Shown piece after piece: positions 18,077 through 19,473 of a stretch of 64,000 nt of DNA. The position numbers and the translations under genes are program-made. The stretch lies in the NCBI RefSeq assembly GCF_003334355.1, contig NZ_QOWP01000001.1; one strand, given 5' to 3'. Below the pieces are notes generated by a model, which was given only the letters and a program-made list of their open reading frames with translations, had not been told where the DNA came from and searched no databases. This DNA is from Escherichia coli. GTDB lineage: Bacteria; Pseudomonadota; Gammaproteobacteria; Enterobacterales; Enterobacteriaceae. Numbering within the stretch: the first letter of the stretch is position 1; each line of letters opens with the position of its first letter.

Positions 18077-18640
18077 TTATTCATTGATCAGTTTCTGCGC
18101 CAACGCAATGACATGATCTACCTCTTCCGGCGTCAGGCTGCCGTCCTTTGCCCACTGAATTTGCCCGGCTTTATTCAGCACCAGAATGGTTGAACTCTGC
18201 TCCGGCAAGCGCCAGGCAACGCGTCCCTGTCCATTGCCGTCAATAACGAATTGCGCCCACGGATAGCGGCGTTTATTTTTTTCGATTTTGCCAACAACAA
18301 AATAGCCAGTACCAAAGATGGCATCATCGGTGTTCACAATGGTGGTGGGCTGAAAACGATCCTGCGGAAAGTTTGCCGCTTCAACCGCTTTAATTAACAG
18401 TGAGTTCTTTTTCTTCGCCGACTTACGCCCGGCGATATACTGGATAATGCGGACTTTTCCCGCCAATTGTGTGCTGTTCCACTTTTGGTAGTGAATTTCG
18501 TCGTCACTATTCAGAAGCAGCTCGCCGCCTTCCTGGATATAAACGGGGGTAACCGTTTTGCCAGTGACGAAATTGTGTGCCTGAACACCCGGGGCTAAGA
18601 GCATGATAATCAGCGCAATAATCAAACGAAATGACATCAT
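18077..18640 (-). CDS. Periplasmic YtfJ-family-like protein with signal peptide
   Basis: 187 aa, N-terminal signal peptide MMSFRLIIALIIMLLAPGVQA; central TTIVNTDDAIFGTGYF and C-terminal WAKDGSLTPEEV resemble YtfJ (from memory). Confidence 0.55.
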   Translation of the reverse strand: MMSFRLIIALIIMLLAPGVQAHNFVTGKTVTPVYIQEGGELLLNSDDEIHYQKWNSTQLAGKVRIIQYIAGRKSAKKKNSLLIKAVEAANFPQDRFQPTTIVNTDDAIFGTGYFVVGKIEKNKRRYPWAQFVIDGNGQGRVAWRLPEQSSTILVLNKAGQIQWAKDGSLTPEEVDHVIALAQKLINE

Positions 18641-18648
18641 TGCTCCGG

Positions 18649-19473
18649 TTATAGCGGAAAACGCGAAATCAGCAGCTCTAAGCGCTGGCGAATATCGCTA
18701 TCCAGCGCCACCGGTGCATCATACGACTGGCGGTTTTCCATATCATCCGCCACCATGTCGTCGTGTTTATCCCCCATCAGGCCATTAATGGCGGCGAGGA
18801 AACGGGAAATCTGTAACGCCTCTTTATTTTCAGGATCAAGCGATCTTAAGGTATCGTAATAAGAAACCTGCTGGCTGATGATTTTTCGCACATCATGAAA
18901 TTCCCTGCCGGTTAGTCGCGGTTTGGCAATTATCTCTTTCAGGGCATGCATTTGCTTTTGCCGATAGGCAATAAAACCGCTTACGCTTTCTAACTGGCTA
19001 TGGCGTAATGAATAGTTCACCAACGACCAGACCGGAGAGCTTAAATAAATCCGCAACAGGTTGCCGTAATATGACACAATATTTTTCTTACCGTTACGAA
19101 ATCCGTCCTGAAAACGTCCCAGAAAAACGGTCGTTTTGCCGAATAAAAATCCGGCCTGATGCTTCTTTAAATACAGCCGTTGCGCAAAACGCAGGTGCTT
19201 GTAGCGCGCTCGCATGTATTTAAATTGTTTGCGCTCATCAGCAGTCAGCTCATCGCCTTTGGCTTGTTTGCGAACTAAACGCAGTAATTCCTGACGATCA
19301 ACGCCATTGAGCCAGAATTGCAGGCATAACGCGTAATTATCATGAATGATTTCGGTGGTACAACTTAGTGCAATAGTCGGCGGCAAACTGACCTGTGCAT
19401 CAACGACATCATCTTCTTCAATCGCAACAAATAGACGCTCGCTCGCCTCAAGCGGGAAATATTTTCTCATCAT
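18649..19473 (-). CDS. Hypothetical protein (274 aa, no recognised family), translationally coupled to yghQ
   Basis: ORF MMRKYFPLEASERLFVAIEED...; start overlaps yghQ stop by 1 nt (TGATG at 19471-19475). Basic and hydrophilic, no obvious TM segment. Confidence 0.55.
   Translation of the reverse strand: MMRKYFPLEASERLFVAIEEDDVVDAQVSLPPTIALSCTTEIIHDNYALCLQFWLNGVDRQELLRLVRKQAKGDELTADERKQFKYMRARYKHLRFAQRLYLKKHQAGFLFGKTTVFLGRFQDGFRNGKKNIVSYYGNLLRIYLSSPVWSLVNYSLRHSQLESVSGFIAYRQKQMHALKEIIAKPRLTGREFHDVRKIISQQVSYYDTLRSLDPENKEALQISRFLAAINGLMGDKHDDMVADDMENRQSYDAPVALDSDIRQRLELLISRFPL

Follow-up and report, generated by a model that had tools for sequence, protein, structure and literature searches.

The uncharacterised 274-residue protein encoded directly downstream of the flippase gene yghQ in Escherichia coli can, we conclude, be placed in the CHAD superfamily as a very divergent member: its predicted fold and sequence motifs agree with those of CHAD proteins, whereas it stays below the Pfam threshold and lacks the usual polyphosphate gene context. 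Its gene, here called o274, forms with yghQ and the three kinase-like genes yghR, yghS and yghT an invariant unit that is tied to sphingolipid-making taxa. The DNA analysed (the window) is a 64,000-nt stretch of the E. coli chromosome bounded by glcC and pitB/gss, and the features of interest are collected in Table 1.

Table 1. Features of the locus in the window; gaps are to the next gene of the putative operon.
Feature	Coordinates	Strand	Gap (nt)	Description
yghT	22545..23237	+		third thymidylate-kinase-like paralog, divergent from yghS; within the locus in each of the three orders
yghS	21658-22371	-	31 (to yghR)	thymidylate-kinase-like P-loop protein; first gene of putative operon
yghR	20868-21626	-	45 (to yghQ)	thymidylate-kinase-like P-loop protein
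yghQ	19473-20822	-	-1 (to o274)	full-length, 449 aa; MOP/Wzx-type flippase
TGATG stop/start overlap yghQ/o274	19471..19475	-		GGAGAG Shine-Dalgarno-like run 11-16 nt upstream of the o274 start, within yghQ
o274 (274-aa ORF)	18649-19473	-	8 (to YtfJ-family gene)	cytoplasmic, basic, predicted all-helical; putative divergent CHAD-superfamily protein
YtfJ-family paralog (187 aa)	18077-18640	-	30 (to lptF2)	signal peptide, residues 1-21; cysteine-free; thioredoxin fold
lptF2 (LptF paralog)	16976-18046	-	-4 (to lptG2)	TIGR04407, 317 bits (cutoff 230)
lptG2 (LptG paralog)	15900-16979	-		last gene of operon; internal amber codon in this window
Hairpin, 16-bp, GC-rich	15868..15902			between convergent spt and lptG2
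aasR-cerR-acpR-spt	11754..15865	+		ceramide-precursor operon; model scores and E. coli B orthologs (PMC9386255)
yghO ORF	10263..11483	-		presumed ceramide N-acyltransferase (aca/bCerS); RefSeq yghO at the equivalent position

The o274 gene and its junctions

At the yghQ/o274 junction, the stop codon of the flippase gene (TGA, 19475-19473) and the start codon of o274 (ATG, 19473-19471) have one base in common, which confirms the shared TGATG described in the earlier note; the same 1-nt overlap is present in the RefSeq annotation of strain AR_0061. The order downstream was also correctly described: o274 ends with TAA at 18649-18651, the YtfJ-like gene follows at the short distance given in Table 1 with GGAG ahead of its start, and the LptF-like gene comes next. 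A consensus scan of the yghS-lptG2 segment found no excess of promoter- or terminator-like sites over shuffled sequence, and one plausible promoter-like site lies upstream of yghS, at 22421-22449. At the other end, the hairpin between the convergent genes is likely a shared terminator that ends both the spt and the lptG2 operons. No Rfam family was matched over positions 15500-23500. The tight spacing of the seven genes from yghS to lptG2 and the scan of the segment are what the earlier note's single module would look like; the stop/start overlap implies translational coupling, but an overlap alone cannot prove the co-translation that was claimed, nor a single transcript.

In the window, lptG2 carries an amber codon at 16233-16235 (CAG to TAG, codon 249) that is private to this sequence; the nearest E. 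coli matches are 99.9% identical and have lptG2 annotated as intact. With lptG2 broken, the sphingolipid export pathway may be inactive in this strain.

The ORF encodes a genuine protein under strong constraint. Of 5426 complete E. coli genomes, 4173 carry the segment, at 92-99.9% identity, and approximately 23% lack it; its RefSeq label is always 'hypothetical protein' followed by 'YtfJ family protein'. Where E. coli has lost o274, the cluster has been lost with it. Compared with other Escherichia species, o274 has a dN/dS of 0.06-0.07, indicating strong purifying selection, and homologs of 60-90% identity occur throughout the Enterobacterales. Searched with a profile, 1.8 billion cluster representatives yielded 300 members of the family at E<=1e-3, counted at 50% identity, of which 171 have E<=1e-10. 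Conservation in related genomes, on which the earlier note had made its reading of the segment depend, is therefore clear. No stretch of o274 is hydrophobic (maximum 0.82); with a pI of 9.3 and 41 K+R against 34 D+E residues, the protein is assigned to the cytoplasm. PADLOC defence models gave no relevant match, and self-alignment of the single sequence detected no internal repeat in o274.

A predicted CHAD-like fold

The earlier note could not assign a family to the 274-aa protein, and a Pfam hmmscan of E. coli o274 indeed returns nothing even at E<=10, CHAD (PF05235) included, with NCBIfam empty as well. A structure model and a family profile nevertheless point to a divergent CHAD-superfamily domain. 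Structure prediction, which had been proposed as a way forward, gave a confident all-helical AlphaFold model (24 homologs; pLDDT 92.3, pTM 0.88) in which two four-helix bundles are related by a pseudo-twofold axis, the arrangement of the CHAD fold. Foldseek with this model returned the Ricinus CHAD protein 6qv5 as the top match in the PDB (probability 1.00, E 0.06). By eye, the motifs RYKHLRFAQRLY, LGRFQD, FHDVRK and MGDKHD resemble the twice-repeated CHAD signature.

Sequence profiles lead to the same family. A profile built from 82 diverse o274 relatives (A2) has 6qv5_A as its best PDB match (E=7.6e-4), with the two repeats in register, while a narrow profile (A1) matched no PDB sequence. 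When the 82 representatives were scanned singly, PF05235 was found in 3 at E<=1e-3 (best 2.5e-5) and in 21 at E<=0.1; CHAD is the sole recurring Pfam family, both among them and in the fusion proteins, and has no competitor. This transitive link between o274 and CHAD is marginal but consistent. Alignment of both profiles to YgiF with hhalign gave a probability of 0.3%, which is uninformative because the template is a single sequence and YgiF is of the 'short' CHAD type.

Twelve columns of the family alignment are at least 75% basic (K85, R88, R90, K92, R95, H105, K/R126, H193, R196, K197, R201 and H237). They sit on helices 4, 5, 9 and 10 and align with the RcCHAD motifs in the A2 profile alignment; at the R201 column, E. 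coli has Q. Only three conserved columns are acidic (D22, D123 and D238), and the median net charge of the family is +7. Polyphosphate contacts in CHAD proteins follow an H-x2-R-x3-R pattern, formed by H253, R256 and R260 in CtCHAD (PMC6537752). The spacing of K85-x2-R88-x3-K92 on helix 4 is that of the CtCHAD residues; in H193-x2-R196-K197 on helix 9, only the first two positions are shared and the third basic residue, R201, lies one residue further on (PMC6537752).

Compared with PF05235 proteins (RcCHAD, 6qv5; CtCHAD, 3e0s/6qv7; Streptomyces PptA, 6rn5; E. coli YgiF, 5a60/5a61), o274 would share the two four-helix bundles and a length of approximately 280 residues, as in the 'long' type, together with basic residues on equivalent helices and a stand-alone, cytoplasmic nature. 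Motifs of the types G-x-x-(H/Q)-D and (H/K)-x2-R-x3-(K/R) occur in both halves, the second only partly in helix 9 of o274. By contrast, o274 falls below every Pfam threshold, and no polyphosphate enzyme (CYTH/TTM, PPK or PPX) is encoded near it in any of the 60 loci described below; instead, it is coupled to a MOP flippase and placed among thymidylate-kinase-like genes in sphingolipid loci. Some distant relatives are fused to kinase domains. In P0233, a protein of 976 aa, an APH/choline-kinase-type domain is joined to an o274-like domain, with a second, weak match to CHAD. Another relative is duplicated in tandem, and in Luteibacter two genes lie in tandem. In the long fusion proteins, NCBIfam matched only a cytidylyltransferase-like stretch, in one of them.

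A conserved unit in sphingolipid loci

To survey the locus, we took one genome per species, which gave 60 loci, and mapped twelve window proteins onto them. The loci fall into four groups: Enterobacterales (16 named genera), Xanthomonadales (Luteibacter and Rhodanobacter), Carnimonas, and Sphingomonadales (Sphingopyxis, Sphingobium, Novosphingobium and Sphingomonas). In nearly all of them yghQ is directly upstream of o274, and every order has the three yghR/S/T paralogs within the locus; the Sphingomonadales gene order is yghS-yghR-yghT-yghQ-o274, and the loci of Serratia and Hafnia are collinear with that of E. coli. For spacing, 59 loci belonging to three bacterial orders were compared. In 54 of them the o274 start overlaps or directly adjoins the yghQ stop (-26 to 0 nt), the distance being -4 in 24 loci, -1 in 15, 0 in 7 and -8, -11 or -26 in the other 8; four further loci have gaps of 2-13 nt, and a broken locus (L063) is the sole outlier. 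This conserved arrangement is more than chance.

The remaining members of the proposed module (flippase, unknown factor, periplasmic factor and permeases) are less constant. Whereas the coupling of yghQ and o274 persists, the YtfJ-like gene follows o274 in Enterobacterales only, and lptF2/lptG2, which come after ytfJ in some genera and lie divergently upstream of yghQ in others, are absent from the Xanthomonadales and Sphingomonadales loci. In approximately 45 of the 60 loci spt lies within 10 kb of o274. Neighbours of solitary copies were also considered as leads: Pluralibacter has second o274 copies away from any flippase, and around the solitary copy lie an OlsC/LpxO-like hydroxylase, an aminotransferase, a BCCT transporter, an amidohydrolase, an MFS transporter and a LysR regulator, none of which gave a clear lead. 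The neighbours of the core in Sphingobium, a 319-aa ORF and a GT4 glycosyltransferase, were uninformative.

In the window itself, homologs of Spt, AcpR, AasR, CerR and bCerS are clustered, as expected of a sphingolipid locus. Spt scores 599 bits with NF047599 (cutoff 500), the fatty acyl-AMP ligase scores 867 bits, and RefSeq annotates spt, an ACP, an epimerase, a FAAL and yghO at the locus. In E. coli B, ECD_02850-02854 are the five dihydroceramide genes, with yghO assigned as aca, and AasR, AcpR and Spt of E. coli are biochemically active (PMC9386255). The genes from yghS to lptG2 had been taken as a general flippase/permease unit; we revise this to the half of the E. coli sphingolipid locus that serves export and the head group, beside aasR-cerR-acpR-spt and yghO. 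The literature searched contained neither a description of an E. coli sphingolipid or head group nor a lipid analysis of native E. coli.

The closest described system is CC_1168-CC_1152 of Caulobacter crescentus, which likewise holds aasR-cerR-acpR-spt and bCerS in one locus (PMC11324152; 10.64898/2026.04.12.717747), along with a Polysacc_synt-type candidate flippase (CC_1166) and LptF2/LptG2 paralogs. According to the latter study (10.64898/2026.04.12.717747), Caulobacter depends on LptF2/LptG2 as soon as it produces anionic sphingolipid, the two proteins work with the housekeeping LptB, and LptF2 is required for sphingolipid transport; the later transport steps are left open there. In contrast to E. 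coli, the Caulobacter locus has no CHAD-like, YtfJ-like or thymidylate-kinase-like genes and has LptC2 and head-group genes of its own, for the DAG-kinase-like CpgB, a Tam41-like protein, a CDP-alcohol transferase, a phosphoesterase and nucleotidyltransferases. Because these head-group genes differ, the E. coli head group is probably different from that of Caulobacter.

YghR, YghS and YghT are 33-43% identical to one another. NCBIfam dTMP-kinase matches stay below cutoff, and the best PDB matches of a joint profile are thymidylate kinases, over the full length (E=5e-7). We considered whether these proteins might be orthologs of the Caulobacter ceramide kinase CpgB and rejected this, since CpgB is a DAG-kinase-like GGDG enzyme and YghR/S/T are P-loop proteins. 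For YghQ, the NCBIfam MOP flippase match is weak, and its orthologs match Pfam Polysacc_synt and Polysacc_synt_3. The literature that names yghQ/R/S/T concerns the K-12 allele, in screens on chlorhexidine and mlaA, and is silent on o274.

The assignment of the 187-aa protein to the YtfJ family is firm (TIGR01626, 211.3 bits against a cutoff of 151.1; PF09695, 2e-59), and the signal peptide noticed earlier is borne out: the N-terminus is hydrophobic (Kyte-Doolittle 2.2), and VQA|HN comes after it. Against other Escherichia species its dN/dS is 0.12. The core E. coli gene ytfJ, beside cysQ, encodes a protein of the same length that is 54% identical and shares the signal peptide and an IAGR-x-SAK-x-KN loop; the cluster copy, by contrast, is accessory, being present in about 76% of genomes. 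The predicted structure of the cluster copy matches the thioredoxin fold, yet the protein has no cysteine, and 36 orthologs have no conserved cysteine column, so that thiol chemistry is impossible. This sets it apart from DsbE/CcmG, ResA, TlpA and the peroxiredoxins, which have catalytic cysteines (CxxC or a peroxidatic Cys); in the cluster copy a conserved basic loop takes the place of the CxxC site. As YtfJ has a housekeeping paralog, the role of the cluster copy may be unrelated to lipids.

Possible roles of o274

We propose, with about even confidence for and against, that o274 is a basic adaptor of the cytoplasm that binds phosphate and cooperates with the kinases and the flippase in making and exporting an anionic sphingolipid. 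YghR/S/T would act as kinases on ceramide or its head group, on the cytoplasmic side of the inner membrane. The CHAD-like protein, which could be produced in a fixed ratio with YghQ, would bind the phosphate-rich head group or the phosphate donor and present or retain the lipid, which YghQ would then flip. In Enterobacterales, the periplasmic YtfJ paralog, with its basic loop in place of CxxC, may act on the flipped anionic lipid, after which LptF2/LptG2 would extract it toward the outer membrane. Several observations go against an adaptor: the absent Pfam CHAD match for E. coli o274, the loci free of polyphosphate enzymes, the solitary Pluralibacter copies and the broken lptG2.

The CHAD fold might instead be a pure protein scaffold, with o274 a stoichiometric subunit, assembly factor or regulator of YghQ that has no phosphate ligand. 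The overlap in 54 of 59 loci suggests a fixed stoichiometry with YghQ, and both the missing polyphosphate gene context and the strong divergence from Pfam CHAD fit such a protein. We consider it rather unlikely all the same, as basic residues predominate among those conserved in the family and are found on the helices bearing the CHAD polyphosphate contacts, and as the fusions are to kinase domains and not to transporters, which argues for a link with phosphorylation. An enzymatic role, for example as a head-group phosphotransferase or phosphohydrolase with H193, H237-D238, D123 and H105 serving in catalysis or metal binding, would suit the invariant His and Asp residues and the company of o274, whose neighbours are all enzymes or transporters of one pathway; we rate it as improbable. 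There is a similarly slim likelihood that o274 is an ordinary polyphosphate-granule protein ('phosin') that simply lies next to yghQ and has no lipid role. The CHAD fold, the presumably basic surface and the second copies of Pluralibacter outside the cluster would be in keeping with a phosin, but the yghQ overlap and the co-occurrence with yghR/S/T persist over three orders while all other neighbours are rearranged, and E. coli loses o274 along with the cluster.

It is highly improbable that yghS-lptG2 serve the export of LPS or a polysaccharide, as the RefSeq names 'lipopolysaccharide biosynthesis protein', 'LptF' and 'LptG' and the LptF model score above cutoff might suggest. The Enterobacterales loci contain no glycosyltransferase or sugar-nucleotide gene, the essential lptF/lptG are encoded elsewhere in E. 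coli, and the cluster goes with spt in most loci and with taxa that produce sphingolipids. In Caulobacter, moreover, LptF2/G2 are sphingolipid-specific (10.64898/2026.04.12.717747).

The nature of the cargo invites a bolder extension of the adaptor proposal. The locus might make a ceramide di-, tri- or oligophosphate, or a polyphosphate-capped ceramide, with YghR/S/T building a phosphoanhydride chain that the CHAD-like protein would recognise, in the way that CHAD domains bind polyphosphate, and YghQ would flip. Thymidylate kinases normally phosphorylate a phosphate acceptor, and the Wzx-type flippases to which YghQ is related carry lipid-diphosphate-linked cargo. We regard this as quite unlikely; if true, it would establish a new class of lipids and give the CHAD fold its first role in membrane lipids.

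The ceramide genes and the idea of LptF2/G2 are already published. No paper on o274, on a link between CHAD proteins and sphingolipid loci or on the five-gene core was found in the literature searched. That core (three kinase-like proteins, a flippase and a CHAD-like protein) is common to Enterobacterales, Xanthomonadales and Sphingomonadales and is unlike the head-group genes of Caulobacter. It bears on the later part of the pathway: the synthesis of bacterial sphingolipids is understood, whereas their decoration, flipping and transport to the outer membrane are still open (10.64898/2026.04.12.717747). For E. coli, a 'hypothetical protein' of approximately three-quarters of genomes, deleted in part of the species, gains a family assignment. 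The residues of o274 named above are specific targets for mutation. The coupling of this gene to yghQ within the sphingolipid cluster offers a lead on how an unusual membrane lipid is decorated and exported, and the association as a whole suggests a second role for the polyphosphate-binding CHAD fold, in membrane-lipid export.

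Partners of the CHAD-like gene and the core ytfJ neighbourhood

The three thymidylate-kinase-like P-loop paralogs YghR, YghS and YghT, which share 33-43% identity with each other, are all named 'dTMP kinase' in RefSeq, with scores that lie far under the dTMP-kinase cutoffs. Their genes occur together with the flippase gene yghQ and the CHAD-like 274-aa gene (o274) in 3 bacterial orders. The housekeeping copy of ytfJ, i.e., core ytfJ, overlaps the end of cysQ, encoding a 3'(2'),5'-bisphosphate nucleotidase, and is adjoined by cpdB, which encodes a periplasmic cyclic phosphodiesterase. 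Both neighbours process small phosphorylated compounds, a possible clue to the class of ligand that the YtfJ family binds.

Coordinates of the features discussed (window unless a locus is named)
Feature	Sequence	Coordinates	Strand
GC-rich hairpin, 16 bp, separating convergent spt and lptG2	window	15868-15902	
In-frame amber codon (TAG), codon 249 of the LptG paralog (15900-16979)	window	16233-16235	minus
GC-rich hairpin, short, 6 bp, within the o274 coding sequence	window	19436-19454	minus
yghR and yghS, thymidylate-kinase-like P-loop paralogs	window	20868-22371	minus
yghT, thymidylate-kinase-like P-loop paralog	window	22545-23237	plus
core ytfJ (housekeeping)	L069	2858-3415	
P0233, o274-like fusion protein	L067	8001-10931	

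The strongest terminator-like site of the region is the hairpin between spt, a gene of the ceramide-precursor operon, and lptG2, the LptG paralog; it probably works in both directions. The shorter hairpin lies 20-38 nt into o274, shortly past the yghQ overlap, where it could affect re-initiation, and its strength is not above that of chance matches in shuffled sequence.

Extra copies and fusions of the CHAD-like gene

Additional CHAD-like copies are present in Pluralibacter (L023 and L032), Luteibacter (L048) and Carnimonas (L056/L065). Those of Pluralibacter are solitary and adjoin genes for an OlsC/LpxO-like lipid hydroxylase and a BCCT transporter, the Luteibacter genes form a tandem pair, and one Carnimonas copy immediately follows spt without an intervening yghQ. 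P0233, P0237, P0241 and P0256 are long metagenomic proteins that join an APH/choline-kinase-type kinase domain to the o274-like domain; in a 2531-aa protein, the o274-like domain shares its chain with a cytidylyltransferase-like stretch.

A contig titled Martelella alba BGMRC 2031 (L041) holds a complete Enterobacterales-type cluster, with 61-78% identity to E. coli, a Serratia-like gene order and an o274 homolog named 'CHAD domain-containing protein' in UniRef. Because such a cluster is odd in an alphaproteobacterium, the sequence suggests that this contig is misassigned or contaminating.

Locus erosion and the lptG2 amber codon

One mapped locus, L005 (NZ_CM129863.1, 744404-754496), comes from a wastewater E. 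coli isolate. Here, the CHAD-like gene is cut off at around codon 48 by a deletion that extends almost to spt and removes the ytfJ-like gene, lptF2 (the LptF paralog) and lptG2, and a second deletion joins a truncated aasR, from the ceramide-precursor operon, to a truncated gspD. The sphingolipid locus is undergoing erosion by several routes inside E. coli.

Codon 249 of lptG2 is CAG in strain AR_0061 and 4 other Escherichia loci, whereas the window has TAG. Since the best E. coli matches, at 99.9% identity, are annotated as intact, the amber codon looks like either a nonsense mutation private to this strain or a sequencing error. If real, it would mean that the export arm of the sphingolipid locus is broken in the window's strain.
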